DNA from: an uncultured delta proteobacterium | GTDB taxonomy: Bacteria; Myxococcota; UBA727; VGSZ01 | Direction: 5' to 3' | Length of the DNA stretch: 64,000 nucleotides | Assembly (NCBI GenBank): GCA_963775425.1 | Contig: CAVZJB010000005.1 | Coordinates: 416,001-480,000, forward strand | In this document: positions 6,887 to 58,200 of the stretch, in pieces | Position numbering within the stretch: the first letter of the stretch is position 1 | Layout of the letters: the number at the start of each line of letters is the position of its first letter | Notes under the pieces: model-generated | Database searches by the model: none | Told to the model about the DNA's origin: nothing | Seen by the model: only the letters and a program-made list of their open reading frames with translations | Position numbers and translations under genes: made by a program

Positions 6887-7321
6887 TCAGCGCTTGAAGG
6901 TGCGCACCGCCGACTTGAGATCGGGCTCGGCGGCGATGTTCAGGCTGCGCGCGTGGGTGGCGGCGGTGCGCACCGTGGCCACCAGGTGCTGCAAGCGCCA
7001 CGGCTTGGTGATCACGGCGTGGGCGCCGCCGTTTATCACCGCCTCCGCCGCCATCTCGCGGCTCGACTGCCCGCTCATGAGCACCCGCGCGATCTTCGGG
7101 TGCGTGGCGCGCAGCGAGGCGAGCAGGTCGATGCCGTCGCGCCCGGGCATCAGGTAGTCGCTGACGACGACGTCGACGGCGTGCTCGTCGACGATGGACT
7201 CCGCGTCCTTGGCGCTCGCCGAGGTGAGGACGTCCCACTCCTGCGCCCTCGCGATCTTCACCAGCGCTTCAAGCGCTTCGGCGTCGTCATCGATGAACAG
7301 GACGCGGATCGGTTTCGACAC
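6887..7321 (-). CDS. Single-domain response regulator
   Basis: VLFIDDD, VVSDYLMPGRDG, ITKPW. Confidence 0.9.
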   Translation of the reverse strand: MSKPIRVLFIDDDAEALEALVKIARAQEWDVLTSASAKDAESIVDEHAVDVVVSDYLMPGRDGIDLLASLRATHPKIARVLMSGQSSREMAAEAVINGGAHAVITKPWRLQHLVATVRTAATHARSLNIAAEPDLKSAVRTFKR

Positions 7322-7506
7322 GGCGATCCAGCATGCGACCTCCCGCGTCCGCCAACAACGCGCGTGCGTGAAGCGTCGCAAACTGCGACGCCCGTGCGTG
7401 CGCGGACCGCGCGGGGGTGCAACGAACGTTGACACGCTGTCTCGAGCTGCGCGCGGATCCACGCGGCCTTGCGCGCCTCACGCCCCTGCCCGTCCTTGGC
7501 GACCGC

Positions 7507-8430: not shown

Positions 8431-8502
8431 GAGGCGCGCACCCTAGCGCAGGGCCGCGGGAGCGTCAGCGGGCGCCTTCGGTCAGCGGGCGGCCTCGCTC
8501 GC

Positions 8503-42059: not shown

Positions 42060-42160
42060 GGGCGCACGATAGACGAACGCCGGGGCGCCCGGCATTCAGG
42101 ACCCCGGGGTGCGCGCAAGGCGCACATCAAGGCGTGGCGAGGCCGGCCGATGGGGGATCG

Positions 42161-43567
42161 GTGGCCCGGATCGACTCCTTCCTCGCGCAGCTCATGGCCT
42201 ACGAGGCCGAGGCCCTCCTCATCGAGAGCGGGGACAACCTCTATCTCGTGAAGGGCGAGCAGCGGCTCCCGCTCATGCACGTGCCCGCCGGCGCCATCCA
42301 GAACGCACACGTGGTGACGCTCCTCGGCGAGGTCGCGCCGCCGGAGATCTGCCGGCGGCTCGAGGCAGGTGAGGGCGCGGAGTGGGTGTACCCGTGGGGG
42401 AGCTGCTCGATCGCCTGCGCCGTCACCGTCGAAGACGGACGCATGCGCGCGCACCTCCGCGACGCCTCGGCCTTCACCGCGTCCGCTGCGGCGCCGGCGC
42501 CGCTGCGCGCCGCGCCGGACGAGGCCGCCGACGGGGTCTGGCAGGGGCCGGCCGTCGAGCGCTATCTGCGCGCGGCCCTCCGGACGGGCAGCGCGGATCT
42601 CCACCTCACCGCGGGACGCGTGCCGATGTGCCGCGTGGACGGCGAGATGGTCGCGCTGCCGGACTTCGCGCCGCTCGAGCCGTACAGCCTGCAAAAGATG
42701 ATCGAAGAGATCGTGCCCGATCGGGCCAAAACGGATCTCGACGCGACGCACGACGTCGACTTCTCCTGGGAGATCGATTGCGCGCGCGTGCGCTGCAACG
42801 TCTTTCGCGACTGCACCGGTGTGGGCGCGGTGCTCCGCGCGTTCCCGCTCCGGGCGATGACGGTGGCGGAGCTCGGCGCGCCGGCGCCGCTCGTGGCGAT
42901 GTGCGCGCAGCGCCACGGGCTCATCGTCGTCACCGGCCCGAGCGGCAGCGGCAAGTCCACCACGGCGGCCGCGTTGATCGACTGGATCAACGACAACCGC
43001 GCGGATCACATCGTCACCGTCGAGGAACCGGTGGAGATCGTGCACGTGCCGAAGCGTGCGCTGGTGAACCAGCGGCAGGTCCGCGAGCACACCGGCAGCT
43101 TCGCCCGCGCCCTGCGCGCGGCCCAGCGGGAAGACCCCGACGTGGTGTTCGTGAGCGACGTCCACGACGTCGAGACGCTCGCGACCGTCCTCGATATGGC
43201 CGAGCGGCACCTCGTCATCGTGGTGATGCACACGCGATCCGCCGCCGCCGCCCTGGAGCGCATCGTCGATCGGTTCTCGCCCGATCAACAGCACCACGCC
43301 CGCAACGTCCTCGCCGAGTGTTTGGTCGGCGTCGTGGCGCAGACGCTGTGCAAGAAGATCGGCGGCGGCCGCGCCGCGGCGTTCGAGGTCCTCGAAGGCG
43401 GCGGGGCCACGGCGACGCTCATTCGCGAGCGGCGGACGAGCGAGCTGCCGCGCACCCTCGACGCGACCCTGCGGGCCCTCGTGGACGCCGGCGTCATCGA
43501 CGCGCGCGAAGCTGTTGCGCGCGCGGTCGACCAGCGTGCCTTTCAACAGTTGAAGGCGGTCGCATGA
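42161..43567 (+). CDS. PilT/PilU-like ATPase paralogue with extra N-terminal domain and degenerate motifs
   Basis: SADLHL, RCNVF, GPSGSGKST, TVEEPVE, REDPDVVFVSDVHD, MHT, TLIRE. Confidence 0.85.
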   Translation: MARIDSFLAQLMAYEAEALLIESGDNLYLVKGEQRLPLMHVPAGAIQNAHVVTLLGEVAPPEICRRLEAGEGAEWVYPWGSCSIACAVTVEDGRMRAHLRDASAFTASAAAPAPLRAAPDEAADGVWQGPAVERYLRAALRTGSADLHLTAGRVPMCRVDGEMVALPDFAPLEPYSLQKMIEEIVPDRAKTDLDATHDVDFSWEIDCARVRCNVFRDCTGVGAVLRAFPLRAMTVAELGAPAPLVAMCAQRHGLIVVTGPSGSGKSTTAAALIDWINDNRADHIVTVEEPVEIVHVPKRALVNQRQVREHTGSFARALRAAQREDPDVVFVSDVHDVETLATVLDMAERHLVIVVMHTRSAAAALERIVDRFSPDQQHHARNVLAECLVGVVAQTLCKKIGGGRAAAFEVLEGGGATATLIRERRTSELPRTLDATLRALVDAGVIDAREAVARAVDQRAFQQLKAVA

Positions 43568-44443
43568 ACGTGTCTGTCGCCAACCCCGACATCGCACTCG
43601 ACCCGCTCGAAGCGATCACCGTCGACGACGTGGACGTCGACGATTCTCATTTCCTCGCGCGCCACGGCACCCGACGTGGTGAAGTTGCCCCCGTCGGCGG
43701 CGCTCGTGAACGCTGCGATCGCCTCGGGCGCCAAGCTCTCCGAGATCACGAAGCTCGTCGAGCTCGACACCGCGCTCGGCGAGAACATCGCGCGCCTCGC
43801 GCGCTCGGCGGCCTACACGAGCGCGGTCGGCGAGAAGGTCTCGCTGCCCTACGCGCTCATGCGCCTTGGCCGCGAAGGCGTGCGCGCCGCGTGTTTCACG
43901 TCGACGCTCGCGAAGCCCGCGCTGCGGCCGGGGCCGCTCCTCCCGCTGCGCAGCCGCGTCTGGCGGGAGTGCATCGCGTCCGCGCTCGCGTGCCAGGCGT
44001 TGGCCGGGAGCAAGGCGCCGGAGCACGACGCGTATCTCCTCGGCTTGCTCCACGACTTCGGCAAGATCCTCGCGCTCGGCATCGTCGAGGGCGCCCTCGC
44101 GCCGGGTGACGCCGGGACGTTCGCGGGGATCGGCGCGTCGTTCTTCGCCGACGCCGCCGAGCGACACCACTGCGACCTCGGGTGGATCGTCACGGACGCG
44201 TGGCACCTGCCCGAGCCCATCCCCACGGTCACCGCGCGCCACCACGTCCGCGACGACGACGATCCGCTCCACGGCCTCGTGACCGTGGCGGATCGCGTCG
44301 TGCGCGAGGCCGCCCGGCGCCGCTGGCAGATCTCGGCCGAGGACATCGAGCGCATCGACGGCATCTACACACGTGACGAGGCCATGTCCGTGCGCATCGC
44401 CATCGCCAAGCACCCCTACGTCTACACCGCCGTGACGGGTTGA
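43564..44443 (+). CDS. HDOD-domain protein; +1 frameshift at ~43645
   Basis: ELDTAL...ARSAAY, LGLLHDFGK, HCDLG...WHLP...HH. The ATG at 43564 (ATGA overlap) joins the main frame if one T is removed from GATTCT. Confidence 0.85.
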
Positions 44444-44474: not shown

Positions 44475-46721
44475 ATGCCGGTTCGTTCGCACGGCACCAA
44501 GCCTCACGCTCGCAGGCGCGCCGGTGGTAGCGAGACCACCACGTCCGCCGCGGGCAAGCCCAAGAGCCCCAAGAAGGCGAAGGCGACGACGTCGACCGAG
44601 GCGGGGACGTCGCCGCCGCTCGACACCGACGTGGTCACCAACGTGGCGCAAGCGGGCGCGGCGCCGCCGGGCGCCGTGCGCGTGGGACACCCCGGCCTCG
44701 CGCGCACGGAGGCGTTGGCGAGGTCGAACAAGCCGTTCGCCTCACGCAGGACCGCCGACGCCGCCGCCGACGCCGCCGCCATCGAGAGGTGCCTCGACAC
44801 GCCCAACGCGTGGTCCGTGCTGCGCAAGCACACCACCAAGAAGGACCTGCACGACGTCGGGGACATGTGCCGGCGGCTCAACCCCGAGCGCTGGCAGGAG
44901 ATCTACGCGGGCTTCTTCGACGCCGTCCTGCGCACCCAGGCGGCCAAGCCCGCGGCGTTGAAGGCGCGCGACAAGGCGCTCCCCGCGGAGTGGTTCCACG
45001 AGCCCTTCTATTACACGTACGTGCAGTACTTCGGCACCAAGGACGCGCGGAGCACCTCCACCTTCGACGACCTCATCAAGATGCTCGACTACCTCGACGA
45101 CGCGGGCATCAAGAACGTCTTCCTCCTGCCGCACTACGAGTCGCCCATGGGCGACGGCGGCTACGACGTCTCCGACTTCGCGCCGCGCAAGGACCTCGGC
45201 GGCGAGGAGGCCTTCGAACGCTTCATGGCGGAGGCCACGCGGCGCGGCTTTCGCGTCGCGACCGATCTGCCGCTCAACCACACGTCGGTGAAGCACAAGT
45301 GGTTCCAGGCGGCGCTCAAGGGCGACGCCGAGAAGCTCGACTACTACCTGCGCCGCGACGGTCGAAAGAAGGTCGGCGAGCGCGACGAAAACGGCGACAT
45401 CGTCTGCCGCTACCAGGACCCCGACGGCACCATCACCGAGCGCGTGCTGATCTTCCCCGACGTCGACCGGGAGCACGGCGAGGTGTTCGAGATCGGCGGC
45501 AAGCAGGTGAACATCTACCAGGAGTTCTACCCGTTCCAGCTCGACCTCGACCTCGAAAACCCGGCGTTGCTCGACGAGATCTTCAAGCTCGTCGGCGACG
45601 AGACCAACCAGGGCATCCTCGGCAAGCGCACCGACGCCATCGCCCACTGGATCAAGAAGCCCGGCACGGCGGCGGACGGGTTGCCCGAGACACACGCGGT
45701 GCACGCGCTCATCAAGTCCTTCCTCAAGCACGTCGCGCCGAAGGCCGTCGTCCTCCCGGAGGCCGTGCGCGGCGCCGACATCTGCGCGCAGTACTGCGGC
45801 GTCGACACCGAGGTCGCCGGCAACGCCACCAGCTCCGAGGGCGACGCGCTGTTCAACTTCGACATGCAGGGCGCGCTTCGGGAGATGCTGTACTTCCAGA
45901 CCACCACGCCGTTTTGGGAGAAGGTCTTCCGGATGCCCGCGCTGCCGGCGGACGCCACGTGGCTCAACCTGCTCGAGCACCACGACGAGACGTACCTCGG
46001 CATGATCAGCGAAGAAAACCGCGGCTGGCTCGGCAAGTACGTCGAGGACAAGGGGGGCGTCGTCTACAAAAACGGCATGAGCGCCGGCGGCCGCTACGCC
46101 GACAACCTCGGCCACGACGCCGACCGCATCGCCAACGCCGTGTTCGCCCTCTACATGACCCCCGGCGTGCCGGTGATGTACTACGGCACCGAGATAGGCG
46201 CGGGGAACAACCCGGCCCACGCCGCGCGCATGCAGAAGAAGCAGCACGGCATCTTCAAGCAGCTCGGGCTCGACGTGACGGAGGAGCAGGCCTTCGACCC
46301 ACGCGAGCTTCAGCGCGGGCCCGTGCCGGCGAAGAAGTTCGACGACGCGCGCGCCAAGAAGTCACCGCCGTTTCAAACCTTCAAGGCGCTGAACCGCCTG
46401 CGCGCCGAGCGGCCGTCGGTGCGCAGCAACCTGCTCACGCCCGTCGACAACGGCCACGACGGCGTGCTCTCGCTCGTGAAGTTCACCGACGACGGCTCGG
46501 ACACCCCCGTGCTCGCGCTCGCGAACCTCACCGGCGACAAGCAGACCCTCCGCATCCCGCTCGACCAGCTCCGCGAGAAGCTCGGCCTAAAAGACGGCAA
46601 GCCCTTCGTGCTCGAAGATCTTCTGGGCGCTGGCCGTGTGGACGCCGAGATCGCGGGCGGCGCCGTGCGCATCGAGATGCCGCCGTACGGGCGCCTGCTG
46701 CTCGACCGCCGGCTCGCTTGA
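44475..46721 (+). CDS. GH13 alpha-amylase-family enzyme, trehalose synthase (TreS)-like
   Basis: SPMGDGGYDVSDF, LNHTS, QLDL, RTDAI (nucleophile), LPEA (acid/base), HHDE, PGVPVMYYGTEIG. Confidence 0.85.
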   Translation: MPVRSHGTKPHARRRAGGSETTTSAAGKPKSPKKAKATTSTEAGTSPPLDTDVVTNVAQAGAAPPGAVRVGHPGLARTEALARSNKPFASRRTADAAADAAAIERCLDTPNAWSVLRKHTTKKDLHDVGDMCRRLNPERWQEIYAGFFDAVLRTQAAKPAALKARDKALPAEWFHEPFYYTYVQYFGTKDARSTSTFDDLIKMLDYLDDAGIKNVFLLPHYESPMGDGGYDVSDFAPRKDLGGEEAFERFMAEATRRGFRVATDLPLNHTSVKHKWFQAALKGDAEKLDYYLRRDGRKKVGERDENGDIVCRYQDPDGTITERVLIFPDVDREHGEVFEIGGKQVNIYQEFYPFQLDLDLENPALLDEIFKLVGDETNQGILGKRTDAIAHWIKKPGTAADGLPETHAVHALIKSFLKHVAPKAVVLPEAVRGADICAQYCGVDTEVAGNATSSEGDALFNFDMQGALREMLYFQTTTPFWEKVFRMPALPADATWLNLLEHHDETYLGMISEENRGWLGKYVEDKGGVVYKNGMSAGGRYADNLGHDADRIANAVFALYMTPGVPVMYYGTEIGAGNNPAHAARMQKKQHGIFKQLGLDVTEEQAFDPRELQRGPVPAKKFDDARAKKSPPFQTFKALNRLRAERPSVRSNLLTPVDNGHDGVLSLVKFTDDGSDTPVLALANLTGDKQTLRIPLDQLREKLGLKDGKPFVLEDLLGAGRVDAEIAGGAVRIEMPPYGRLLLDRRLA

Positions 46722-46757
46722 CTCAAGCGACCGGAGGGAGCGGCCGCGCTTGGGTCA
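46719..46757. repeat. Palindromic repeat copy joining two convergent stop codons; possible terminator
   Basis: TGACTCAAGCGACCGGAGGGAGCGGCCGCGCTTGGGTCA. Confidence 0.8.
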
Positions 46758-47330
46758 GTCCTCACCGCCGTTGGCGGCTTTCTGGATGAGCTGGCGGGAG
46801 GTCCGGAGCAGCCGGGCGGCACCGGAGCGATTCCCGCCGGCCTTGTCGAGGGCCTGGATCAACAAGGAACGACGCACCTCCCGCTCGAACGCGAGGAGTG
46901 AGACACGTCCGACATAGCGCGCGAGGAGCGCGTAGATGGGAGGGGGATCTTCCCGCTCCGCGCGGTCGAACGCAGACAGCAGGGTCGCCGCGGTCAGCGG
47001 TGAGTCGAGCAGGCTGTGCACCCCGAGGGAGCCGAGCGCGAACATCTCCTCGAACGTGAAGCCGTCCTTCACCGCCAACACATGCGGCGTGGGCAGGCTC
47101 AGGGTCGCGGTGCGAGCGACGTCGATCCCGGGGCCGTCGTCGAGCGTCGAGGACACGACGACGAAGTCGAGGTGGGAGCTGAGCAGGATCCGATCGATGG
47201 CGTCGGCGCGCGAGGTGCTCGCCATGACGAGGGTGCCTTGCCGGCGAAGGCCCCAGGTGAGCTGCGCGACGACTGCGCGGTCGGTGAGCGCCAGCAGCAC
47301 GTTCCGCTTACGCCGATTTCGCCTACGCAT
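46755..47330 (-). CDS. RegA/PrrA-like regulator: pseudo-receiver plus Fis-type HTH
   Basis: DFVVVSSTLDDGPG; ALDKAGGNRSGAARLLRTSRQLIQ. Confidence 0.82.
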   Translation of the reverse strand: MRRRNRRKRNVLLALTDRAVVAQLTWGLRRQGTLVMASTSRADAIDRILLSSHLDFVVVSSTLDDGPGIDVARTATLSLPTPHVLAVKDGFTFEEMFALGSLGVHSLLDSPLTAATLLSAFDRAEREDPPPIYALLARYVGRVSLLAFEREVRRSLLIQALDKAGGNRSGAARLLRTSRQLIQKAANGGED

Positions 47331-47489
47331 CTCTCCGGCAGCGTGGCACGCGCGTTCGACGCAGTGCGTTTTCGCTCAAAGTTGAGACACCGGGATATGC
47401 GACCGGTCGGTTTTCGCGCTCTCTCGCCAGGGTGGCCCGCAACAACTGTGGCAGTGCCGGTCGCCCGATCGGACTGGTAAGTGCGCCGC

Positions 47490-47891
47490 ATGTCCAATGC
47501 TCTTGAGATCGGTCCGCACCGGTTCGATTTCCAGCCACCCGCCCTCGTGTATTTGAGCTTCGTCGACAACATCGATGACGCACACGCGGCGACGGTGATC
47601 GAGGCGTGCGGCCGGTCGACCGCGAAGAAGCCGTTCGCGATCGTCTGCCACACGCCCGGGATGAAGAACGTGACGCCGCGCGCGCGCAAGGTCTTCGCGG
47701 ACGGATTCAAGAAGATGCCTCTGGTGGCCGCGGCCTTCGTGGACGCCTCCATCCGGACGCGGGCGATCGTGACGTTCGTCGTCACCGCCATCAACGTCTT
47801 CCGTTCGAAGAAGATGGCCTTCGCGTTCTTCGACCGCGAGGAAGAGGCGAAGACCTGGGCCATCACCGAGCTCGCGACCTGGACCGAGTGA
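47490..47891 (+). CDS. STAS/SEC14-like (SpoIIAA-like) small protein
   Basis: TPRARK, AAAFVDAS, FAFFDREEEAKTW pattern of myxobacterial STAS/SEC14 proteins. Confidence 0.75.
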   Translation: MSNALEIGPHRFDFQPPALVYLSFVDNIDDAHAATVIEACGRSTAKKPFAIVCHTPGMKNVTPRARKVFADGFKKMPLVAAAFVDASIRTRAIVTFVVTAINVFRSKKMAFAFFDREEEAKTWAITELATWTE

Positions 47892-47897
47892 CGGGAG

Positions 47898-48524
47898 ATG
47901 TCTCCCGTCGCGATTCGCACCCTCGAGGTGCTCGAGAACCACGTCTCCCCCATCAACGCGCGTTCCGTCTTTCGCCGCGCGCTCGATGCGGCGGGCTTCA
48001 CGCCTGAGACGATGTCCACGCGCGAGCTGACGGTCCTCTTGCCGGCGTTGAGCCGATCCGTGCGGCTCTTCGTCGACGCCCCGGTGCTTGCGCGCATCAT
48101 GTCGTCCCTCTCGGAGCTCGCCGAGGCCCGGCCGGCCACCACCGTCGAGAAGATCCCGATCGCCGACGAAGACGACGTGAGCAAGGCCCGCCTCACCGCG
48201 CGGTCCTTGTGCCGTGATGCGGCCACGCCGTCTTTGCAGGCACAGAAGATCGCAACCGCCGTGAGCGAGCTCGCGCGCAACCTCTTCCGCTACGCGACGG
48301 GCGGCGTCATCGAGCTCGAGATCACGGCGTCACCGCCGCGCTTCATCGTGCGCGCGCTCGATCGCGGCCCGGGCATCAACAACCTCCCGGAGATCCTCTC
48401 CGGCCGCTACAAGTCGCGAACGGGCATGGGGCTCGGCCTCCTCGGCACCAAGCGGATGGTGGACGAATTCGACGTCGTCACCGGGAGCACAGGCACGCGC
48501 ATCGTCGCGGTGGTGCACCTGTGA
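47898..48524 (+). CDS. rsbT: RsbT-like Ser/Thr kinase with N-terminal helical extension
   Basis: KIATAVSELARN, DRGPGI, YKSRTGMGLGLLGTKRMVDEF. Confidence 0.88.
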   Translation: MSPVAIRTLEVLENHVSPINARSVFRRALDAAGFTPETMSTRELTVLLPALSRSVRLFVDAPVLARIMSSLSELAEARPATTVEKIPIADEDDVSKARLTARSLCRDAATPSLQAQKIATAVSELARNLFRYATGGVIELEITASPPRFIVRALDRGPGINNLPEILSGRYKSRTGMGLGLLGTKRMVDEFDVVTGSTGTRIVAVVHL

Positions 48525-48607
48525 CGGCCCGGGTCGCGCCGGCCGGGGCGTCCTCGAGCGACGCCCGCTCAATCGACGAGCTCACGCTCGTCTTCGTGGA
48601 GGTGTGA
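48521..48607 (+). pseudogene. 28-codon ORF, probable internally deleted PP2C (RsbX-like) phosphatase remnant
   Basis: GTGA overlap with rsbT; MTARVAPAGASSSDARSIDELTLVFVEV*; ends 1 nt before rsbS. Confidence 0.5.
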
Positions 48608-48608
48608 A

Positions 48609-49052
48609 GTGCCATCGGACGCGTCCCCGGCCTCGATCCCCATCATCCGGCTCTGGGACATCCTGCTCGTCCCCATCCAGGGGGACCTCCCCGATCGCAT
48701 CGCAGAGCAACTGCGCGCCGACGTCCTCACGCGCGTCCAGGAGTCCGGCACGCGCCACGTCATCGTCGACGTGTCCGGCGTGTGGTTCATGGACAGCCAC
48801 CTGTGCATGGTGTTGTCGCAGCTCGCGAAGGCCGCGCGCTACATGGGCTGCTCCACCATCGTCACGGGCCTGTCGCCCGACGTGGCGCTGACGCTGCAAT
48901 CCATGGGGCTGCACATCGGCACGGGAACGACGATGCGAAACCTGGAGCAGGCGCTCGTGTCCCTCGGCGTCGCGCCCAAGAAGCGGGCCGACAAAGAAGA
49001 CGACGACATCATCCGCCGCATCACGCTCGGTGACAGGGAGAAGGAAGAATGA
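48609..49052 (+). CDS. rsbS: RsbS-like STAS antagonist
   Basis: IPIIRLWDILLVPIQGDL, DVSGVWFMDS (phospho-Ser position), GLSPDVALTL. Confidence 0.88.
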   Translation: MPSDASPASIPIIRLWDILLVPIQGDLPDRIAEQLRADVLTRVQESGTRHVIVDVSGVWFMDSHLCMVLSQLAKAARYMGCSTIVTGLSPDVALTLQSMGLHIGTGTTMRNLEQALVSLGVAPKKRADKEDDDIIRRITLGDREKEE

Positions 49053-49672
49053 ACGACGTCGTGACCTTCGATCGAATCCGAATCGCGCGCCTCGCGCAAC
49101 TCCTCGGAGCGTTGAGCATCGGGGACGGTATCGACGCCGCCAAGATCAACGTCGACACCCGCGACGAGCTCGCGGACTTCGAAGAGATGTTGAACATCTT
49201 CGCCGAGGAATACTCGGACGCGCTCGCCGAGAACGAAGAGCTGAACCGCCGCAGGCTCGAGACCATCGAGCGGCAGCAGGCCACCATCGCCGAGCTGAGC
49301 GTTCCGATCATCGATGTCTGGGACGACGTCGTCATGCTGCCCATCGTGGGCATCGTCGACACGCAACGCTCGGTGGACATGACGCAGCGGCTGCTCCGGC
49401 GTGTCGCCGCCGGAAACGCACGGTGCGTGATCATCGACCTGACCGGCATCGACGTCGTCGACACGTCCGCGACCGATCACTTGATTCGCATGATGCGCTC
49501 CGTGCAACTGCTCGGCGCGTTCTGCGTGATGTCGGGGATCTCCCCGAACATCGCCCAGACCATGGTGCAGCTCGACGTCGATATGGGCGCCGTGGCCATG
49601 GTGCGGAGCATGAAGGACGCGCTGCGCCTCTCGTTCCGGAAGCTCGACGCCCTCGAGCGCGGCGAGGGATGA
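49049..49672 (+). CDS. rsbR: RsbR-like STAS co-antagonist with short N-terminal domain
   Basis: ELSVPII, LPIVGIVDTQRS, IDLTGIDVVDT, LLGA, SGISPNIAQT. Confidence 0.88.
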   Translation: MNDVVTFDRIRIARLAQLLGALSIGDGIDAAKINVDTRDELADFEEMLNIFAEEYSDALAENEELNRRRLETIERQQATIAELSVPIIDVWDDVVMLPIVGIVDTQRSVDMTQRLLRRVAAGNARCVIIDLTGIDVVDTSATDHLIRMMRSVQLLGAFCVMSGISPNIAQTMVQLDVDMGAVAMVRSMKDALRLSFRKLDALERGEG

Positions 49673-50073
49673 CCGAGGAAGAGATCACGGTCCGCTCCAT
49701 CGTCGACGCCAGCGTGGCCGCCTCGCTGGCGCGCCGCTTCGCCGAGCGCTGCGGTCTCGAGCCGAAGGCAGCGACCGAGATCGGCATCGTCGCGCGGGAG
49801 CTCGCGACCAACATGGCGCGCCACGCCAACGAAGGCGTCCTCTACCTGCGCCTGGTGGGGGACACCGTGGAGCTCGAAGCCGTCGATTGTGGGGACGGAG
49901 CCCCGGAGGACCTCGCCCGCTCCGATCCGGGGGTCGTCGACGCCCGCGGGCGCGCGCGTGACGGGCTCGGCCAAGGGCTCGCGGTTGTGCGCCGGCTCAC
50001 GGACAGCGTCGAGGCGCGCCCCGCGCCGGGGCGCCGGGGCCTCGCCGTCGTCGCGCGCCGCCGCAAAGGGTGA
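49669..50073 (+). CDS. Second RsbT/RsbW-type GHKL ATP-binding protein (stand-alone)
   Basis: ELATNMARHA, AVDCGDG, GLGQGLAVVRRL. Confidence 0.82.
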   Translation: MTEEEITVRSIVDASVAASLARRFAERCGLEPKAATEIGIVARELATNMARHANEGVLYLRLVGDTVELEAVDCGDGAPEDLARSDPGVVDARGRARDGLGQGLAVVRRLTDSVEARPAPGRRGLAVVARRRKG

Positions 50074-50142
50074 GCCCCTGCCACATCTGTTGCACTTCAA
50101 GTGGACCGCGCAGGTGATAGGTAGCGCGCATTCGGGGGTCCC

Positions 50143-51165
50143 ATGAGCTCACTTGAAGGCAATCCGATCGATCAACTCGATGAAGTCCTGTTGGAGCCCG
50201 TCGGGCGCCGCGGCTACGCCGACTTCGACTACCCATGGCCGGCGCCGGCCGTCCCCACCGCCGCCGCGCTGGAAGCGGACGCCCGTGCGTGGGCGGTGCG
50301 TTTCGGTCTGGTGCAGGTGGCGGAGCTGCCTCGGCGCTTCGACCCGGTCAACGTCGGCCTGCTGACGGCGCTCAGCTACCCGGGCGCGCCGGCCAAGCGC
50401 CAGCACCTGATCGCGGAGCTGCTCGCCTGGATCTTCATCCAGGACGACGTCTACGACGACGCCGTCGCGTCCCACGATCCCGAGCTGCTGCACACGGTGC
50501 TCTCGGAGTACGTCGCGGTGCTCCGCGGCGCCGAGCCGGGACCGCGGGCGGGCGCGGCCAGCGTCGCGCTGGCGTCGCTGCGTGACCGAATCAACGCCGT
50601 CGCCGATCCCGCCTGGATGGATTGGTTCTGCGAATCCATGCGCGGCTTCTGGCTGGAGGGCATCGTCGCCGAGACGCGCATCCGCTCGCTCGACATCACG
50701 CCCGACGTGACCACCTACCTCCGTATGCGGGTGCACTCCATCGGCGTGCTTCCGTTCCTCGACCTCGTCGAGCTCGCCCACGGGTTCGCCTTGCCGCGCG
50801 TCGTGTGCGGCGACCCGACGATGATGAAGCTCCGCCTGCGGACGGCGCGCATCATCGCCTACGCGAACGACGTCTTCTCCTACGAGAAGGAGCGCCGCGC
50901 GGGCGATCCGAACAACCTCGTGCACGTCCTGCGGCACCACGACGGCTACTCGATCGCCGGCGCCGTCGACCGCGTCGTGCGCCTGCACGATCGCGAGCTC
51001 GAGCTGTTCCGGCGCGAGGCCGCGTCCACGCCGTTCGCCGGGATCCCGCACGTCGGCGACTTCCTCGAAGGGCACCGCGCGTGGATGCGCGGCGCCCTCG
51101 ATTGGCAGCGCATGTCGCGACGCTACACGACGGGCCGCGAGCTGCTCGACCAAGGGGCGCAATAG
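50143..51165 (+). CDS. Class I terpene cyclase (probable sesquiterpene synthase)
   Basis: DDVYD Asp-rich motif, YLRMRVHSIG effector region, NDVFSYEKE (NSE), NNLV, WQRMSRRY (WxxxxxRY). Confidence 0.93.
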   Translation: MSSLEGNPIDQLDEVLLEPVGRRGYADFDYPWPAPAVPTAAALEADARAWAVRFGLVQVAELPRRFDPVNVGLLTALSYPGAPAKRQHLIAELLAWIFIQDDVYDDAVASHDPELLHTVLSEYVAVLRGAEPGPRAGAASVALASLRDRINAVADPAWMDWFCESMRGFWLEGIVAETRIRSLDITPDVTTYLRMRVHSIGVLPFLDLVELAHGFALPRVVCGDPTMMKLRLRTARIIAYANDVFSYEKERRAGDPNNLVHVLRHHDGYSIAGAVDRVVRLHDRELELFRREAASTPFAGIPHVGDFLEGHRAWMRGALDWQRMSRRYTTGRELLDQGAQ

Positions 51166-51167
51166 CG

Positions 51168-52106
51168 ATGTTCTCCCTCGCACGCCCCACGGCAGGGGAC
51201 GCCGGCGCCCCGCAGCCGGCGCCGGCCGACGACATCGCCGCGCGCACGAACGCCGCGCTCGGCCGCGCCCTCGACGAGCACGCCGATGTCGACGGCACGC
51301 GGCCGCCGGCGTCGCTCCTCGAGGCCATGCGCTACGGCCTCCTCGCCGGCGGGAAGCGGCTGCGCCCGACGCTCGTCATCGAGAGCGCCCGCGCGGCGGG
51401 CCGGGTCTCCCTCGACGAGGCGCTCGAGCTCGCGGGGCCGGCGGCGCTGGCCGTCGAATACGTGCACACCTATTCGTTGATCCACGACGACCTCCCGGCC
51501 CTCGACAACGACACGCTCCGCCGCGGCCGGCCCACGATGCACATCCAGTTCGACGAGGCGACCGCGATCCTCGCCGGCGACGCGCTCCTGAGCGACGCCT
51601 TCGGCCTGGTGGCGCGCGCCCGGCACAACGCCGCCCGGCAGGTGCTCGAGCTGTCGTCCGCCGTCGGCAGCGCCGGCATGGTCGGCGGCCAGGTCGACGA
51701 CCTCGCGAGCGAGGGCGCCGCGCCGGACAGCGTCGACCTCCCCGCCATCCACCGCAGGAAGACGGGCAGGCTCTTCGTCGCCTCCTGCGTGCTCGGCGCG
51801 CTCTCCGCGGACGCGCCGGAGGATGTCGTGGCGATGCTCCGGGACTACGGCGCCGCGCTTGGGCTGGCCTTCCAGATCGCCGACGACGTCATCGATGCGA
51901 CGTCGACGGAGGCGCACGCGGGCAAGAACGTCGGGCGCGACGCCGAGCGGCAAAAGCCCACGTACCCGAGCCGCTTCGGCGTGAAGGCCGCGCGCGCCAT
52001 GGCCGTCGCGGCGTCGGAGCGCGCCGCCGGCCTGGTGAGCGCGCTCGGCGAAGCCGGCGACACCCTCGCGGCGCTCGCGCGCTTCGCCGCGCACCGGGAT
52101 CGCTGA
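51168..52106 (+). CDS. ispA: Short-chain polyprenyl (farnesyl) diphosphate synthase
   Basis: GGKRLRP, HTYSLIHDDLPALD..RRG, GQVDD, KT, FQIADD, GKNVGRD...KPTY; starts 2 nt after the cyclase stop. Confidence 0.9.
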   Translation: MFSLARPTAGDAGAPQPAPADDIAARTNAALGRALDEHADVDGTRPPASLLEAMRYGLLAGGKRLRPTLVIESARAAGRVSLDEALELAGPAALAVEYVHTYSLIHDDLPALDNDTLRRGRPTMHIQFDEATAILAGDALLSDAFGLVARARHNAARQVLELSSAVGSAGMVGGQVDDLASEGAAPDSVDLPAIHRRKTGRLFVASCVLGALSADAPEDVVAMLRDYGAALGLAFQIADDVIDATSTEAHAGKNVGRDAERQKPTYPSRFGVKAARAMAVAASERAAGLVSALGEAGDTLAALARFAAHRDR

Positions 52107-52235
52107 GCCCGGATCCGGGCAGGCCGGGGAAAACCCTTGAAGAATCAGGATATTGCGGCGACAGATCGCCGCCGTTCGACCGGTGAAGGGAAATGTAGGC
52201 GGGGCCGCCGATAATCGCCTCAACAGGAGGCTCCG

Positions 52236-53081
52236 ATGCCGGTCACGCTCTCAAACGACTCTCTCTCCCGCGCGCGCAACGCCTACCGCACGATCGAGCG
52301 AGAGGCGTCGGGGCCGACCAGCGAGCGGGACGAGAAGGAGATCGTCGCTGCGCTGCAGGGGCTGACGCCCACGGAGCGCGGCGAGGTCGTCCGGCTCATC
52401 AACTCGGGCTCGGACCCCATCACCACCGAGCACCTGCTCAACCACGACATCGACGACCCGGCGCTCCGCTCCACCGCCGCGCGGCTCATCCGCGAGGCCG
52501 ACGGGTTCTCCCGCGTGCCCGGCAACAGCATCATCAGCGACGTCGACAAGACGGTCCTCGACGGCGCCGGCCACCAGTACCCCGGCGTGCGCTCGCTGTA
52601 CGAGGCGCTCGGCGGCGGCGAGGGCAGCAACACGCACATCGTGAGCGCGCGCCCGCTGTCGTTCCTCTTGCCCACGGAGTTCGAGCTGCACGAGCTGCCG
52701 CACAACTCCGTGAACTACGGCAGGACGATCCCGTCGTTCTTCTCGCTGTTCGGCAGCCTCGACGGGATCATGAAGGAGAAGGTGAAGGACTGCCTCTCCG
52801 TGTTCGCCAGAAACCCCGAACGCACCTTCACGCTCGTCGGCGACACCGCCCAATCGGATCCGGCCGTGTACCGCGAGGTGCTGCGGCAAAAGCCCGAGCA
52901 GGTCGGGCTCATCCTCATCCACGAGGTCGACGGCCACGCCGCCCCCGCCGACCTCAAGAACGATCCGCACGTCGTCTGCTTCAGCGACTACGCCGACGCC
53001 GCCCGCAAGCTGGCCGCGCGCGGAGACATCACGCCGGAGCAGATGAACAAGGTGCTCGACGACGTCGCCGCCGGCCGCTGA
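52236..53081 (+). CDS. App1-like (HAD-type) phosphatidate/lipid phosphatase
   Basis: IISDVDKT (DxDxT), YPGV, VSAR, LVGDTAQSDP. Confidence 0.75.
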   Translation: MPVTLSNDSLSRARNAYRTIEREASGPTSERDEKEIVAALQGLTPTERGEVVRLINSGSDPITTEHLLNHDIDDPALRSTAARLIREADGFSRVPGNSIISDVDKTVLDGAGHQYPGVRSLYEALGGGEGSNTHIVSARPLSFLLPTEFELHELPHNSVNYGRTIPSFFSLFGSLDGIMKEKVKDCLSVFARNPERTFTLVGDTAQSDPAVYREVLRQKPEQVGLILIHEVDGHAAPADLKNDPHVVCFSDYADAARKLAARGDITPEQMNKVLDDVAAGR

Positions 53082-53107
53082 TCAAGCGCGGCCGCTGATC
53101 AGCGACC
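53079..53107. repeat. Fragments of the GATC-bounded repeat between convergent genes
   Basis: TGATCAAGCGCGGCCGC (reverse complement of the right arm) followed by TGATCAGCGACCG (left arm). Confidence 0.65.
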
Positions 53108-53108
53108 G

Positions 53109-55160
53109 TCAATCCTGCTCGAGGATCTTGAGCTCCACGCGACGGTTCTTCTCGCGGCCCGCGCGCGTCTTGTTGTCGGCGATGGGCTGGGTCTCGCCGT
53201 AGCCCTGCGACGTCAGGCGCGCGGGGGCGATCCCGTGGTCGACGAGGTAGCGCTCGACGCTGGCGGCGCGGCGCTTGGACAGGTCCATGTTGAAGTCGTC
53301 GGGGCCCTGGCTGTCGGTGTGGCCCTCGACCATCACCTTCTTGATCTCGGTGTGCGCCTTCATCACCGACGCCACCTGGTCGAGCAGGTTGAACGACTGC
53401 CGCTTGATCGTGTCCTTGCCGGTGTCGAAGTACACCGTCTGCTTCAGCTCGATCTTCTCCTTGGTCACGATGACCAGGGTCTTGCCCTTGTCGGGGCAGC
53501 CGTCGGTGTCGTCGACGCCGTTGATGGTCTCGGGCTCGTTCGGGCACTTGTCGTCGGGATCGGGGATGCCGTCCTTGTCCGTGTCGGGGCAGCCCTTGAA
53601 GTCGGCGGGCCCGGGCTTGTCGGGGCAGCGGTCGTCGTTGTCGGCGATCTTGTCGCCGTCCTTGTCGGGGCAGCCGTGCAGCTCGACGAGCCCGGCGACG
53701 TCGGGGCACCGGTCGTCCTTGTCCGCCACCGTGTCGCCGTCCTTGTCGGGGCAGCCGTGCGTCGCGGCCGGGCCCGCGTCGTCGGGGCAGGCGTCGTCGG
53801 CGTCGGTGATGCCGTCCTTGTCGCGGTCGGGCGCGGGGCAGCCCGCGAAGGCGGGGTCGCCCGCCTCGTTCGGGCACTTGTCATCCTTGTCGAGCACCGT
53901 GTCGTTGTCGTTGTCGACGTCGGGGCAGCCGTCGGCGTCCTGGAAGCCGTCGTTGTCCTCCGCCTGGTCGGGGCAGTGGTCGGCGCTGTCGGGCAAGCCG
54001 TCGCCGTCGTTGTCGGGGTCGGGGCAGCCGTCGGCGTCCTCGAAGCCGTCCTTGTCCTCGGGATCCTCGGGGCACTTGTCGTCGTCGTCCTGGATGCCGT
54101 CGTGGTCCTTGTCCGTGTCCTCGTGGGCATAGCGGACGCCGGCGAACAGGCGCAGGTCCGGTGAGCCGTAGCCCGGCAGGATGCCCGCGCCGAAGCCGCC
54201 CTCGACGTGGAGCCCCGGGAAGATCTCGTAGCGCGTGCCTGCGGCCCACTCGAGCGGGTTGGTGAGCCGCGCGTCCACCTCGGCGATGCGCTGCTCCTCG
54301 GGCGTGGCGCTCGGGTCCTGGATGAGGCCGAAGGGGTTTCGGTCGGCGGTGGCGCCGAAGAGCTCTGCGAACAGCATGAGGCTGTTCATCTTGCGCGTCA
54401 GCGACGAGAAGTCGTAGCCGACGCCGGCGCGGTAGACGAGCTCGGGGTTGATCTCGAGCGCGCCGAGGTAGCGCACCGGCTGGCGCAGGCGGTACGCGAG
54501 GTTGCCCGCCAGGCGGAAGCCGTAGACGTTCGTCGACAGCGCCACCTCGGGGATGAAGGCGAACTTGCCCGGCCCCTCGCCGAGGTAGCTGTTGCCGTAG
54601 TCGTAGGAGACGCCGCTGCCGCCGAATTTCAAGCCGCCCGCGGTGGGCAGCGTGACGGCGGGGATGATCGCGAGCGAGACGAAGTGCTTGTCCTCGCGCA
54701 GGATGCGCACCTTGGGCGCGATCTTGAGGTCGCCGATGCCGACGCTGGCGAGACCGGAGGAGACGCCGACGGCGTCGGCGAGGTTCTGCTGCACGTCGCC
54801 GCCGACCTGCAGGAACGTGATGGGCAGGTCGACGCCGAGGCTCACGTAGTCGAACAGGCCGATGGTGAACAGGGCGTCGCCGGCGACGCGGTGGGAGACG
54901 ATGTCGCCGACGACGTCGCCGTTGGCGTCGCGGATGACCAGGGGGTTGAGCGCGTAGTTGAGGTCGAGCCCCGTCTGGAAGCCCAGGTGCGTGGGGATGG
55001 AGCCCGACTCCGTGGTGACGAGCCCCTTGTCGTCGATGGCCGGCCGGAAGCGCTCGATGGGCAGCGTGAAGGCGTCGTCGCTCTGGGCGCGCACGGCCGG
55101 GGCGAAGGCGAGCCCCGCACAGAGGGCGCCGAGGGCGGGGAGGGCGGTGCGGAGCGTCAT
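53109..55160 (-). CDS. OmpA-family protein with beta-barrel and thrombospondin type 3 repeats (TraB-like architecture)
   Basis: Signal peptide, barrel, many DxDxDGxxDxxDxCP repeats, VEGHTD...LSKRRA...GYGE...NRRVE. Confidence 0.92.
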   Translation of the reverse strand: MTLRTALPALGALCAGLAFAPAVRAQSDDAFTLPIERFRPAIDDKGLVTTESGSIPTHLGFQTGLDLNYALNPLVIRDANGDVVGDIVSHRVAGDALFTIGLFDYVSLGVDLPITFLQVGGDVQQNLADAVGVSSGLASVGIGDLKIAPKVRILREDKHFVSLAIIPAVTLPTAGGLKFGGSGVSYDYGNSYLGEGPGKFAFIPEVALSTNVYGFRLAGNLAYRLRQPVRYLGALEINPELVYRAGVGYDFSSLTRKMNSLMLFAELFGATADRNPFGLIQDPSATPEEQRIAEVDARLTNPLEWAAGTRYEIFPGLHVEGGFGAGILPGYGSPDLRLFAGVRYAHEDTDKDHDGIQDDDDKCPEDPEDKDGFEDADGCPDPDNDGDGLPDSADHCPDQAEDNDGFQDADGCPDVDNDNDTVLDKDDKCPNEAGDPAFAGCPAPDRDKDGITDADDACPDDAGPAATHGCPDKDGDTVADKDDRCPDVAGLVELHGCPDKDGDKIADNDDRCPDKPGPADFKGCPDTDKDGIPDPDDKCPNEPETINGVDDTDGCPDKGKTLVIVTKEKIELKQTVYFDTGKDTIKRQSFNLLDQVASVMKAHTEIKKVMVEGHTDSQGPDDFNMDLSKRRAASVERYLVDHGIAPARLTSQGYGETQPIADNKTRAGREKNRRVELKILEQD

Positions 55161-55247
55161 GAGGCTCTCCGGGGGCGTCGACAGGAACCCGTTTCGCTAC
55201 CATGCTCCGGTGATGCACGTCCAAGAAGCCGCCGCCGGAGTCTCGCC

Positions 55248-58200
55248 GTGACCGCCGCCGTCCTCCCCGAAAAAGCGTCCGCGGGCGCCTCGACCTTTTC
55301 GTTGGCCCACAAGGTTCGCTTCGTCACGGCGGCCTCGCTCTTCGACGGGCACGACGCCGCCATCCAGATCATGCGGCGCGTGCTCCAGCAGGAGGGCGCC
55401 GAGGTCATCCACCTGGGCCATGACCGCTCGGTGGCCGACGTCGTCGACGCGGCCATCGCCGAGGACGCCCAGGGGATCGCCGTGTCCTCGTACCAGGGTG
55501 GGCACGTCGAGTACTTCACCTACATGCTCGAGCGCCTGAAGGCGCGCGGCGCGTCGCACATCCAGGTCTTCGGCGGCGGCGGCGGCGTCATCGTCCCCGA
55601 GGAGATCAAGCTGCTGCACGAGCGCGGCGTGGCCCACATCTTCTCACCCGAGGACGGCAGGAAGCTCGGGCTCGTCGGCATGATTCGCCAGATGCTGGCG
55701 GCGTGCGACCACGTGCCCGGCCCGATGCTCGCGCGGGTCCCCGAGGCGCTGTCGCCGGACAACCCCGGCGTCATCGCGCGCGCCATCACCACCCTGGAGC
55801 TCGCCCACGACGAGGGCGCCTCGCCCGAGGTGCGCCAGGCGGCCCTCACGCTGCGCGCGGACCTCGAGCAGAAGGCCAAGGCGCAGGCGAGCGCACACCT
55901 GCGGCCGCCGATCATCGGCTTCACGGGCACCGGCGGCGCCGGCAAGAGCTCGCTCATCGACGAGGTGCTCCTGCGCTTCCTCGAGGCGTTCCCCGAAAAG
56001 ACCGTCGCCGTCCTCTCGGTGGATCCCAGCCGTCGCAAGAGCGGCGGCGCCCTCCTCGGCGACCGCATCCGCATGAACGCCGCGGGCGCGCGCTTCGGCG
56101 CGCAGGGCCCGCAGGGCAAGGAGCGCGTCTACCTGCGCTCCATGGCCACGCGGCGCGCGAACCTGGCGACGTCGGCGGCGGTGAAGGAGGCGCTGTCGTT
56201 GCTGCAGCTCGCCGGCTTCGACCTCGTCATCCTCGAGACCGCCGGCATCGGCCAGAGCGACAGCGAGGTGGCGGACCTCGTCGACACGTCGGTCTACGTG
56301 ATGACCCCCGAGTACGGGGCGCCGAGCCAGCTCGAGAAGATCGACATGCTCGACTTCGCCGACCTCGTCGTCATCAACAAGTTCGACAAGCGTGGCGCCC
56401 TCGATGCCCTGCGCGACGTGCGCAAGACCTACCAGCGGAACCACAAGCTGTTCGACACGCCGGTGGACCAGCTCCCGGTGTTCGGCACGGCGGCGCACCG
56501 CTTCCACGACAAGGGCACCAACGCCTTCTTCAACGCCCTGTTCGCGCGCGTCGCGCGGGGGGCGTCACAGGGCCCGTGGACGTTCGCGCCGCTCGAGGAG
56601 GGGCCGGCGGCGACGGACTCGCTCATCCCCGCCGGGCGCACGCGCTACCTTGGCGACATCGCGGAGACGTCGAGGCGCCGGCGCAGGCTCGTCGAGGACC
56701 AGGCGCTGCTCGCGGAGCGGGCGCACGCGTGCAAGCGCGCGGCGGACGAGCTGCCCGAGGGGGAGCGCGCCCCGCTGTTGAAGCGCCACGAGGAGCTCGT
56801 GAAGGAGATGGCGCCCGAGGCGCGCGCCGTCCTCGAGGGCTGGGACGCGATGGTCGACGGCTTCTCCGCGCCGGTGCACAGCTACACCGTGCGCGGCAAG
56901 AAGATCGACGTCGACAACTACACGGAGAGCCTCTCGCACAACAAGATCCCCAAGGTGGCGCTGCCGGCGCACGCCGACTGGGGCGCGCGGGTGCGCTTCG
57001 GCATGAAGGAGAACGCGCCGGGCGCCTTCCCCTTCACCGCCGGCGTGTTCCCGTACAAGCGCACCGGCGAGGACCCCACGCGCATGTTCGCCGGCGAAGG
57101 CACGCCGGAGCGCACCAACCGCCGCTTCCACTACGTGTCGCAGGGTCAGCCCGCGGTGCGGCTGTCCACGGCGTTCGACTCCGTCACGCTCTACGGGCAG
57201 GACCCGGCGGTGCGCCCGGACATCTACGGCAAGGTCGGCAACTCGGGCGTGTCCGTGTGCAGCCTCGACGACGCCAAGCGGCTCTACTCGGGCTTCGATC
57301 TCTGCGCGCCGAGCACGTCGGTGTCGATGACCATCAACGGCCCCGCGCCCACGATGCTCGCGTTCTTCCTGAACGCCGCCATCGACGCCGCCGTCGAGCG
57401 CCGGCTGCGCAAGGACGGCTCGTGGCCCGAGGTGGATGCACGCATCGCGGCGTGGTTCAAGGAGCGCGGCATCGAGCGGCCGCGCTACCGGGGGGAGCTG
57501 CCGCCCGGCCACGACGGGATGGGCCTCGGCTTCCTCGGGCTCTCCGCCGACGCCGTCGTCGACAAGCCGCTCTACGACGAGGTCAAGGCCGGCGTCTTGC
57601 GCACCGTGCGCGGCACCGTGCAGGCCGACATCCTCAAGGAAGATCAGGCGCAGAACACCTGCATCTTCTCCGCCGAGTTCGCGCTGCGCATGATGGGCGA
57701 CGTGCAGCAGTACTTCGTCGACCACGACGTCAAGAACTTCTACAGCGTGAGCATCAGCGGCTACCACATCGCCGAAGCCGGGGCCAACCCGGTGACGCAG
57801 CTCGCGTTCACGCTCTCCAACGGCTTCACCCTCGTCGAGTACTATCGAGCGCGCGGGATGAAGGTCGACGACTTCGCGCCCAACCTCTCCTTCTTCTTCA
57901 GCAACGGGCTCGACCCGGAGTACGCCGTCATCGGCCGCGTGGCGCGGCGCATCTGGGCCGTCGCCATGCGCGACCTCTACGGCGCCGGCGAGAGGTCGCA
58001 GAAGCTCAAGTACCACATCCAGACGTCGGGCCGGTCGCTGCACGCGCAGGAGATGGCGTTCAACGACATCCGCACCACGCTGCAGGCGCTCTACGCCATC
58101 GCCGACAACTGCAACTCGCTCCACACCAACGCCTACGACGAGGCCGTCACCACGCCCACCGAAGAGAGCGTGCGGCGCGCCATCGCCATCCAGCTCGTCA

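Follow-up and report, generated by a model that had tools for sequence, protein, structure and literature searches.

A stressosome-like signalling cassette beside a two-gene sesquiterpene unit in an uncultured member of the Myxococcota

We analysed a 64,000-nucleotide stretch of DNA (hereafter the window; G000:C5:416001-480000, contig CAVZJB010000005.1) from the genome of an uncultured delta proteobacterium (G000; 8.26 Mb in 18 contigs), with a focus on a gene string in which a signalling cassette related to the stressosome is followed, after 69 nt, by a class I terpene cyclase and a farnesyl diphosphate (FPP) synthase (FPPS). The G+C content of the window is ~71%, and homologues of its genes are named after Polyangiaceae, Sandaracinus and Nannocystaceae metagenome-assembled genomes, which is of the Myxococcota type. 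Third-position G+C and the listing of open reading frames (ORFs) delimit one clear gene string on the + strand, and with families assigned by Pfam the features are as follows.

46755-47330, - strand: Fis-type helix-turn-helix (HTH_8) regulator (Fis-HTH protein) with a receiver-like N-terminal half, divergent from the cassette (Pfam HTH_8, E 3e-5)
47481-47891, + strand: DUF7793/SpoIIAA-like STAS-fold protein (Pfam DUF7793, 25.7 bits against a cut-off of 26)
47898-48524, + strand: Kin1, 208-aa GHKL Ser/Thr kinase of the anti-sigma type (HATPase_c_2, E 6e-13)
48525-48608 (84 nt), + strand: remnant of an RsbX-slot PP2C/SpoIIE gene, its last ~12-15 codons (match at the C-terminal end)
48609-49052, + strand: RsbS-like single-STAS protein (STAS, E 7e-12)
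49049-49672, + strand: RsbR-like protein with a C-terminal STAS domain (STAS, E 1.4e-14)
49669-50073, + strand: Kin2, GHKL kinase of the anti-sigma type with one domain and 134 aa, at the end of the cassette (HATPase_c_2, E 1e-12)
50074-50142, + strand: 69-nt spacer between cassette and cyclase, with a sigma-54-like near-match inside
50143-51165, + strand: class I terpene cyclase, sesquiterpene-synthase-like, 340 aa (Terpene_syn_C_2, PF19086, E 1.4e-40)
51168-52106, + strand: extra FPPS (polyprenyl_synt, E 8e-54)
52236-53081, + strand: App1-like (APP1_cat) HAD-type phosphatase (PF09949, E 2.3e-13)

Two units in one gene string

Genes of the cassette are separated by 6-nt gaps or overlap by 4 nt, and the FPPS starts 2 nt past the TAG stop codon of the cyclase; the 84-nt stump and the 69-nt spacer depart from this 2-6-nt spacing. 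The App1-like gene lies 129 nt beyond the FPPS, and a convergent OmpA-family gene at 53109 ends the string. A first-pass annotation of the sequence had already listed these genes, and ORFs and Pfam matches recovered every one of them in the family that it had named, together with the 69-nt and 2-nt gaps. Its start of the run at 46755 belongs to the - strand Fis-HTH gene, and the + strand run begins at 47481. The locus is composed of two units, a signalling cassette and a two-gene sesquiterpene maker, in one same-strand string.

The cyclase scores 139.6 bits against PF19086 (cut-off 23.7) and is the sole match to this family in the whole genome. It carries the motifs DDVYDD and NDVFSYEKE, in which D101, D102, D105, N242, D243, S246 and E250 do not vary among 28 homologues. 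End-to-end alignments were obtained with sesquiterpene synthases (T-muurolol synthase 9hqd, 133 bits; 10-epi-cubebol synthase 7zrn, 113 bits), and its top NCBIfam match is isoafricanol synthase (NF041624; 156 bits, far below the 500-bit cut-off). With the T-muurolol, 10-epi-cubebol and isoafricanol synthases it shares full-length alignment, the DDxxD and NSE/DTE motifs and a length of ~340 aa. Its substrate is very probably FPP, because all of the best-matching synthases use FPP; with scores this low, none of which reaches an equivalog cut-off, its product cannot be named.

The neighbouring FPPS passes the FPPsyn cut-off of NF045485 (287.1 bits versus 275) and stays below that of CrtE geranylgeranyl diphosphate synthase (249 versus 460). 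Its first Asp-rich motif is YSLIHDDLPALD and its second is FQIADDVID. Among short-chain bacterial FPPSs, the aromatic residue at position -5 of the first Asp-rich motif sets the chain length, and the Tyr that the first-pass annotation had placed at -5 before DDLPALD is present (HTYSLIHDDLPALDND). Three polyprenyl synthases occur in the genome. One of them, on contig C2, is 58% identical to the FPPS of the window, likewise exceeds the FPPsyn cut-off and lies behind an xseB gene. This is the housekeeping copy, and the FPPS of the window is therefore an extra and presumably dedicated copy, in line with what had been proposed from its gene neighbours. The third (G000:C5:491362-492435) lies ~11 kb past the window, is 357 aa long with DDVID as its first motif and Ala-Ser at -5/-4, and falls below every NCBIfam cut-off. 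Judging from sequence and spacing, the FPPS presumably supplies the substrate of the cyclase and is translationally coupled to it. A cyclase paired with its own FPP synthase is known elsewhere, as in ptlA/ptlB of the pentalenolactone pathway. The G+C at third codon positions (GC3) is 0.96 in the FPPS, 0.91 in the cyclase and 0.90-0.91 in the cassette genes.

The App1-like gene had been counted as part of the module by the first-pass annotation, a link that is weakened here. Its product is a clear family member (PF09949, 50.8 bits versus a cut-off of 27.1; HAD-type DxDxT motif as SDVDKTV). Matches to it occur in 7 of 10 genomes of the same family (full-length at 41-45% identity in five), all without a cyclase and with no common neighbours, and the 129-nt gap before it holds its own Shine-Dalgarno sequence, GGAGG. 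It is thus probably a neighbour outside the terpene unit. When insertion boundaries were sought by synteny with the family genomes, the App1-like gene was the only gene matched (5 loci).

Recurrence of the cassette and of the pairing

Kin1 matches at E <= 1e-20 were found in 76 of 401 sampled genomes of the phylum. We examined 63 cassette loci in 61 other genomes by tblastn, for which the queries were the window proteins together with PP2C, DUF7793, Fis and cyclase sequences of relatives. PP2C genes are present in 53 of these loci (directly after Kin1 in 49), RsbS-like genes in 44, Kin2 in 43, RsbR-like genes in 37 and DUF7793 in 23, and homologues of the FPPS or the App1-like protein in none. 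Four loci (L074, L075, L077 and L095) have the order R-S-Kin1-PP2C, and several other orders occur. The nearest relative among the genomes, G017, has Kin1-PP2C-S-R-Kin2, which is the order of the window plus a phosphatase, with identities to the window of 45% (Kin1), 53% (S), 61% (R) and 41% (Kin2). Taken together, the cassette is a self-contained, conserved unit without a fixed neighbour and is widespread in Myxococcota. Among the papers listed by the literature searches, we found by title or abstract no description of the six-gene cassette nor of a myxobacterial stressosome module.

The genome of the window carries other modules of this kind on contig C17. In one (C17:176000-188000, L024), genes for a protoglobin-RsbR, for S and for T precede a HATPase_c_2-SpoIIE (kinase-PP2C) fusion; the other (C17:445000-457000, L025) is a stressosome-type module with a gene behind it for a His kinase that has an RsbU_N-like domain. 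Both of these C17 modules have recognised outputs.

Pairing of the cassette with a cyclase was then assessed among homologues in a large protein database, where cyclase and RsbR-like homologues were matched by source tag and by the exact size of the longest contig. This database contains cyclase homologues closer than those of any genome examined. Eight cyclase homologues are at least 50% identical to that of the window, four of them on contigs >5 kb and the other four on contigs of 1.1-3.9 kb. On all four assessable contigs, the cyclase homologue and one of the closest RsbR orthologues share source and size:

jgi, 3 contigs, 54463 bp: cyclase P0005 (65% identity), RsbR-like P0035 (74%)
lgn, 9049 bp: cyclase P0004 (66%), RsbR-like P0036 (73%)
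ncbi, 8755 bp: cyclase P0008 (53%), RsbR-like P0038 (68%)
lgn, 5748 bp: cyclase P0007 (55%), RsbR-like P0058 (58%)

For the top eight by the top five matches, ~0.01 size agreements are expected by chance, and three were observed. A built-in check is provided by P0050 (12274 bp), which corresponds to the G017 contig of L020 and has the same size. A quick tree of RsbR-like proteins places the window, P0035, P0036 and P0038 in one clade (SH-aLRT 94) and P0058 in a second clade, while the G017 clade and another clade (contigs of 12-256 kb) are without a cyclase partner. At 58% RsbR identity, P0058 diverges from the window to the same depth as G017 (61%), a member of a different family, so the pairing spans a divergence as deep as the G017 split, with apparent losses between.

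A second arrangement was found in G047, a 6.4-Mb genome of another class whose cyclases are only 25-27% identical to that of the window. Its cassette comprises Kin1, PP2C, an RsbS-like, a DUF7793-like and an RsbR-like gene and then a Fis-HTH protein, and its only two PF19086 matches flank this cassette, one on each side. One of the cyclases is preceded, on the same strand, by a small HATPase_c_2 kinase, and each cyclase is followed by a SpoIIAA-like/DUF7793 gene. The two cyclase pairs are at 4128-6003 and 11473-13190 of L066 (G047:C19:53000-72000), and their small genes are 89% identical. We considered whether the cyclases of G047 carry an additional regulatory domain and rejected this, as the N-terminal stretch is of low complexity and probably represents duplicated upstream DNA. 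A sigma-54 pattern search of this locus gave seven matches at <=2 mismatches, versus 12.5 expected by chance, none of them convincing. We also observed a methyltransferase and an alpha/beta hydrolase upstream in L066. G047 thus represents a second lineage that assembled the same kind of pair independently.

Searches for the window cyclase gave matches in 3 of 41 genomes of relatives (its own genome and two weak matches) and, within its own order and class, in 1 of 38, again the window's genome; in the class of G047 there were none in four genomes. The G047 cyclase was likewise found in 1 of 41 genomes of its relatives, G047 itself, and two collection scans returned cyclase homologues that were all at <=43% identity. 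The first-pass annotation had named uniqueness of the adjacency to this genome as the finding that would count against it; the adjacency is instead not unique, as contig source and size place cyclase and RsbR orthologues together on the four contigs above and G047 has an arrangement of its own. A genome search for the cassette near terpene synthases, which it had also put forward, gave the G047 arrangement, and 62 of 63 cassette loci elsewhere are without a terpene gene.

Cassette proteins, a lost phosphatase and known relatives

The RsbS-like protein has RsbS 6qcm as its top solved match (70 bits, E 1.5e-18), and its phosphorylatable Ser is aligned (FMDSH versus FIDSF), with the S-to-A variant 9o4r marking the site. 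The RsbR-like protein matches Vibrio vulnificus RsbR 7o0i best (106 bits, E 1.4e-29) and keeps the Thr positions of VVDT and IAQT, which we take to be T171 and T205 of B. subtilis RsbRA. The ~70-80 aa before its STAS domain have no Pfam or NCBIfam match and no known sensor domain. The search was able to find an RsbR sensor domain, since the protoglobin-RsbR elsewhere in the genome was detected.

Both kinases keep the N, G1 and G2 boxes of ATP binding (ELATNMARHA, DCGDG and GLGQGL in Kin2), and neither matched a solved RsbT by sequence search. In the structural model of Kin1 (predicted local distance difference test, pLDDT, 93.3), an N-terminal four-helix bundle (helices in residues 3-76) precedes a SpoIIAB/RsbW-like GHKL domain, and this catalytic domain superposes on SpoIIAB and RsbW with template modelling (TM) scores of 0.75-0.89 on the target. 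Over its whole length, the fold of Kin1 matches branched-chain ketoacid dehydrogenase kinase, pyruvate dehydrogenase kinase and His kinases with a root-mean-square deviation of 17-20 A; the four-helix bundle (47898-48130, residues 1-76) gives it the domain types of those kinases in a different arrangement. The nearest relative of Kin2 is 56% identical, and an exhaustive search gave 29 proteins at E <= 1e-10; a word-index search at the same threshold had returned Kin2 alone, which was a miss of sensitivity and not an absence. Because four loci show R-S-Kin1-PP2C, that is the rsbRSTX order, Kin1 would occupy the RsbT slot and PP2C the RsbX slot, and Kin2 would be an extra kinase.

The DUF7793 protein is modelled with a STAS/SpoIIAA fold (pLDDT 88.6). 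Its top fold matches are 2q3l and 2ook, Shewanella SpoIIAA-like proteins of DUF3478, followed by RsfB, SpoIIAA, RsbV and SiaC; TM scores are 0.62-0.66 to 2q3l and 0.52-0.67 to ordinary anti-sigma antagonists, and no solved protein was matched at the sequence level. A Ser/Thr precedes xxARK in most DUF7793 members, at the place expected of an antagonist phospho-site. The protein may be the antagonist partner of a kinase, and together Kin2 and DUF7793 look like a built-in partner-switching pair. The first-pass label for this protein, STAS/SEC14, holds for its first half, the STAS/SpoIIAA-like fold of the model; SEC14 has no Pfam match, and only a likeness reported for the related SpoIIAA-like family speaks for it. 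That likeness, of Shewanella SpoIIAA-like proteins to CRAL-TRIO carriers of small nonpolar molecules, is described in PMC2954212 and is the likely source of the label. These two DUF3478 structures are the top two fold matches of the model, but the window protein has no sequence match there, and Pfam puts it at DUF7793 (just below the cut-off) and not at PF11964.

Between Kin1 and the RsbS-like gene, the 84-nt frame at 48525-48608 ends in ...IDELTLVFVEV*, and the PP2C proteins of relatives end in ...NDDVTLLLAEVRA, ...FDDATVMVADLGG and others (L020, L066, L064 and L063). The end matches the C-terminal DD[AV]T[LV][LM][LV] of the SpoIIE/PP2C gene downstream of Kin1 in relatives, where SpoIIE is matched by Pfam in L066, L063 and L064. 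The remnant ORF of the first-pass annotation is thus real, and the RsbX-slot PP2C has been deleted here except for this stump with its recognisable C-terminal end. RsbX resets the stressosome complex according to PMC9237108. If canonical logic holds, a module without PP2C would rely on another phosphatase or would be locked in one state.

Several known systems offer a frame for these genes. In a stressosome, R and S form a large pseudo-icosahedral particle in which the kinase is sequestered. The available text of PMC9237108 describes rsbRSTX as a widely conserved minimal stressosome module, for instance in Vibrio vulnificus, and eleven types of downstream architecture for which it names signalling domains only (PP2C, GGDEF, EAL, HisKA, REC, sigma etc.). 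As in rsbRSTX, the phospho-sites of RsbS and RsbR are kept here, a GHKL switch kinase is followed by a single-domain PP2C in relatives, and a downstream gene set is only a few bases away. Unlike in rsbRSTX, the T-slot kinase has a four-helix bundle and no solved sequence match, RsbR is without a globin or known sensor domain, the order is T-(X)-S-R with the X phosphatase deleted, an extra kinase and a SpoIIAA-like protein are in the unit, and a biosynthetic enzyme is found downstream, a type absent from the domains named in that text of PMC9237108. The catalytic fold of Kin1, and the antagonist fold and conserved Ser/Thr of DUF7793, are like those of RsbV-RsbW and SpoIIAA-SpoIIAB, but unlike those systems the locus lacks a sigma factor. 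By Pfam, no sigma factor domain was found in the genes from 36442 to 63299 and no His kinase or GGDEF gene in the locus, in agreement with the first-pass statement that the usual RsbRST outputs are missing; neither terpene-linked locus, of the window or of G047, has a sigma factor or other classical target.

A Fis-HTH protein is present in both terpene-linked loci. The neighbours of the one in the window in a protein atlas are REC+HTH_8 response regulators of the ActR/PrrA/RegA type, and Pfam found no receiver domain in it. By eye, a Ser (DFVVVSS) stands where the phospho-accepting Asp is expected, and the N-terminal half may be a pseudo-receiver for a Ser kinase. The last gene of the G047 cassette encodes an HTH_8 protein that is homologous to it over the C-terminal 85 aa only (36%, E 1e-6). 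In L064 (G056:C334:43000-62000), a full NtrC-type sigma-54 activator (REC, AAA+, HTH_8) at 7046-8617 is directly upstream of the cassette on the same strand, so that three of the non-Myxococcaceae cassettes examined have a Fis-type HTH regulator beside them.

Other genes of the window flank the string. On the + strand, 54207-58709 encodes a 1500-aa fusion of B12-binding, MeaB/CobW GTPase and methylmalonyl-CoA mutase domains, a layout that we take to be that of a fused, IcmF-like isobutyryl-CoA mutase. A T2SSE-type secretion ATPase with an HDOD-domain protein (42134-44443, + strand) lies just upstream of a GH13 alpha-amylase-family gene (44475-46721).

Possible co-regulation and its alternatives

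We give an even chance to the reading that the pairing represents real co-regulation, most simply co-transcription. The pairing would be functional because the cyclase stayed by the cassette over long divergence and because a second lineage assembled the pair independently. The cyclase and FPPS would then be the distal genes of the cassette transcription unit, or would be reached by read-through over the 69-nt spacer, and switching on the cassette operon would lead to the sesquiterpene being made. The spacer has no + strand terminator-like site and a fold no different from that of shuffled sequences (z 0.07), and no sigma-70-like promoter or + strand terminator-like site was found in 46600-53300 by a scan that was not built for high-GC myxobacterial promoters. 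A number of observations weigh against co-regulation or favour the explanation that the two units are mere neighbours, in which the cyclase and FPPS form a small terpene cluster of the ordinary sort, served by a separate promoter, beside a mobile stand-alone cassette and persist there by descent; this we consider possible but somewhat unlikely. Only 1 of the 63 cassette loci (L066 of G047) has a terpene synthase within ~9 kb (tblastn with four queries and a hidden Markov model of 12 cyclases), and with ~0.2 chance adjacencies expected (61 genomes, few cyclases per 10 Mb) G047 alone is weak statistics; its cyclases are moreover 79%-identical paralogues, which points to one event plus duplication. 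Flanks of the cassette are common only within a genus and its neighbours are otherwise not conserved. The G017 cassette ends at a convergent halogenase-like gene, and the single cyclase of G017 is on another contig beside a gene for a cyclic-nucleotide (cNMP)-binding protein. The cyclase occurs in none of 10 family genomes, where Kin1 occurs in 3, and its ~42% homologues in L026, L027, L030, L031 and L032 have no adjoining cassette genes. The four-contig linkage rests on source and size and not on gene order, strand or distance, and among near relatives it can be plain inherited synteny. No RNA run among those searched covers 47400-52300; one soil DNA run with 6% of the region's words gave pieces of 130-263 nt, two of them identical to the window, and bridged no junction. 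Loss of PP2C may signal decay of the cassette here, and the GC3 of the FPPS exceeds that of the cassette genes. The spacer holds the sole match in the window to the sigma-54 -24/-12 pattern at <=1 mismatch, TGCCACATCTGTTGCA (50079-50094, TGCCAC-N5-TTGCA), 49 nt before the cyclase, as a lead to a separate promoter. This match, however, has its one mismatch in the near-invariant GG, and chance alone would give ~0.78 of these per window. Coincidence of neighbours also has to account for a link that holds on all four assessable contigs down to 53-58% identity, where local gene order in the family is already lost, for the independent pair in G047, where unrelated cyclases are interleaved with cassette-family genes, and for a cyclase GC3 equal to that of the cassette.

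Two further explanations place the link between the proteins, and both are improbable in our view. One is gating at the protein level, in which Kin2 would hold or phosphorylate the cyclase or the FPPS, or unphosphorylated DUF7793 would switch the cyclase as SiaC does SiaD; we think this unlikely. A precedent for a partner switch with an enzyme as output exists in SiaABCD of Pseudomonas aeruginosa, in which SiaC, a STAS-like protein controlled by a PP2C and a kinase, activates the enzyme SiaD by binding to it. In the window, Kin2 is the gene immediately before the cyclase, and in G047 a small kinase lies upstream of a cyclase on the same strand and a DUF7793/SpoIIAA-like gene follows each cyclase; the DUF7793 model matches SiaC (6kkp, 6kko and 7e6g, the last a SiaC-enzyme complex) as well as anti-sigma antagonists, and the absence of a sigma factor or classical target from both loci would fit an enzyme target. 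The fold match to SiaC is weak, however (TM 0.42-0.51), and the enzyme here would be a terpene cyclase and not a diguanylate cyclase. Cassettes with Kin2 (43/63) or DUF7793 (23/63) are mostly without a cyclase, so their usual target must be something else; the cyclase, at 340 aa aligned end to end with ordinary synthases, has no extra domain or docking extension, and both cyclase-adjacent DUF7793 copies of G047 lack S/T-xxARK. A predicted complex of the cyclase (28-row alignment) with Kin2 (34-row) scored 0.00 and 0.01 against a mark of 0.32, which as a run without controls is evidence neither way. The corresponding general proposal, a partner-switching cassette with a biosynthetic enzyme as its output in which DUF7793 or Kin2 binds the cyclase and gates it post-translationally, is accordingly one that we hold doubtful to the same degree. 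The other explanation reverses the wiring, so that a terpenoid or FPP would be the input and DUF7793 would bind the product and report to the kinases, as feedback or as self-sensing of a volatile; this is very unlikely in our estimate. The top folds of DUF7793, 2q3l and 2ook, resemble CRAL-TRIO carriers of small nonpolar molecules according to PMC2954212, and each G047 cyclase is paired with a SpoIIAA-like gene. But the TM score to 2q3l is no better than that to ordinary antagonists, no solved protein is matched by sequence, and DUF7793 regularly belongs to the cassette and occurs in 23 of 63 loci without terpene genes, which also weakens the first-pass suggestion that this protein could serve as a dedicated terpenoid sensor.

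Returning to co-regulation, the stress- or signal-gated sesquiterpene system proposed by the first-pass annotation is partly supported, in that the pairing occurs again elsewhere and the FPPS is an additional, presumably dedicated copy. Among the papers listed by the literature searches, none by title or abstract joins terpenes with a stressosome, and no paper was found that joins them with partner switching or a STAS domain.

If the pairing is inherited synteny only, the locus amounts to a small terpene cluster next to a signalling operon, both of an ordinary sort. If it is real, it would add to the few clues about how bacteria control their terpene production and for what reason. Gating, if true, would for the first time show STAS/GHKL partner switching in direct control of secondary metabolism, would have arisen twice in Myxococcota and would turn a stress or other signal into a burst of volatile terpene. 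Stressosome outputs outside Bacillales are largely unknown, and a cassette tied to a cyclase would, if the pairing is true, give a volatile read-out measurable by gas chromatography-mass spectrometry (GC-MS), which could be used to find the input signals of such modules.

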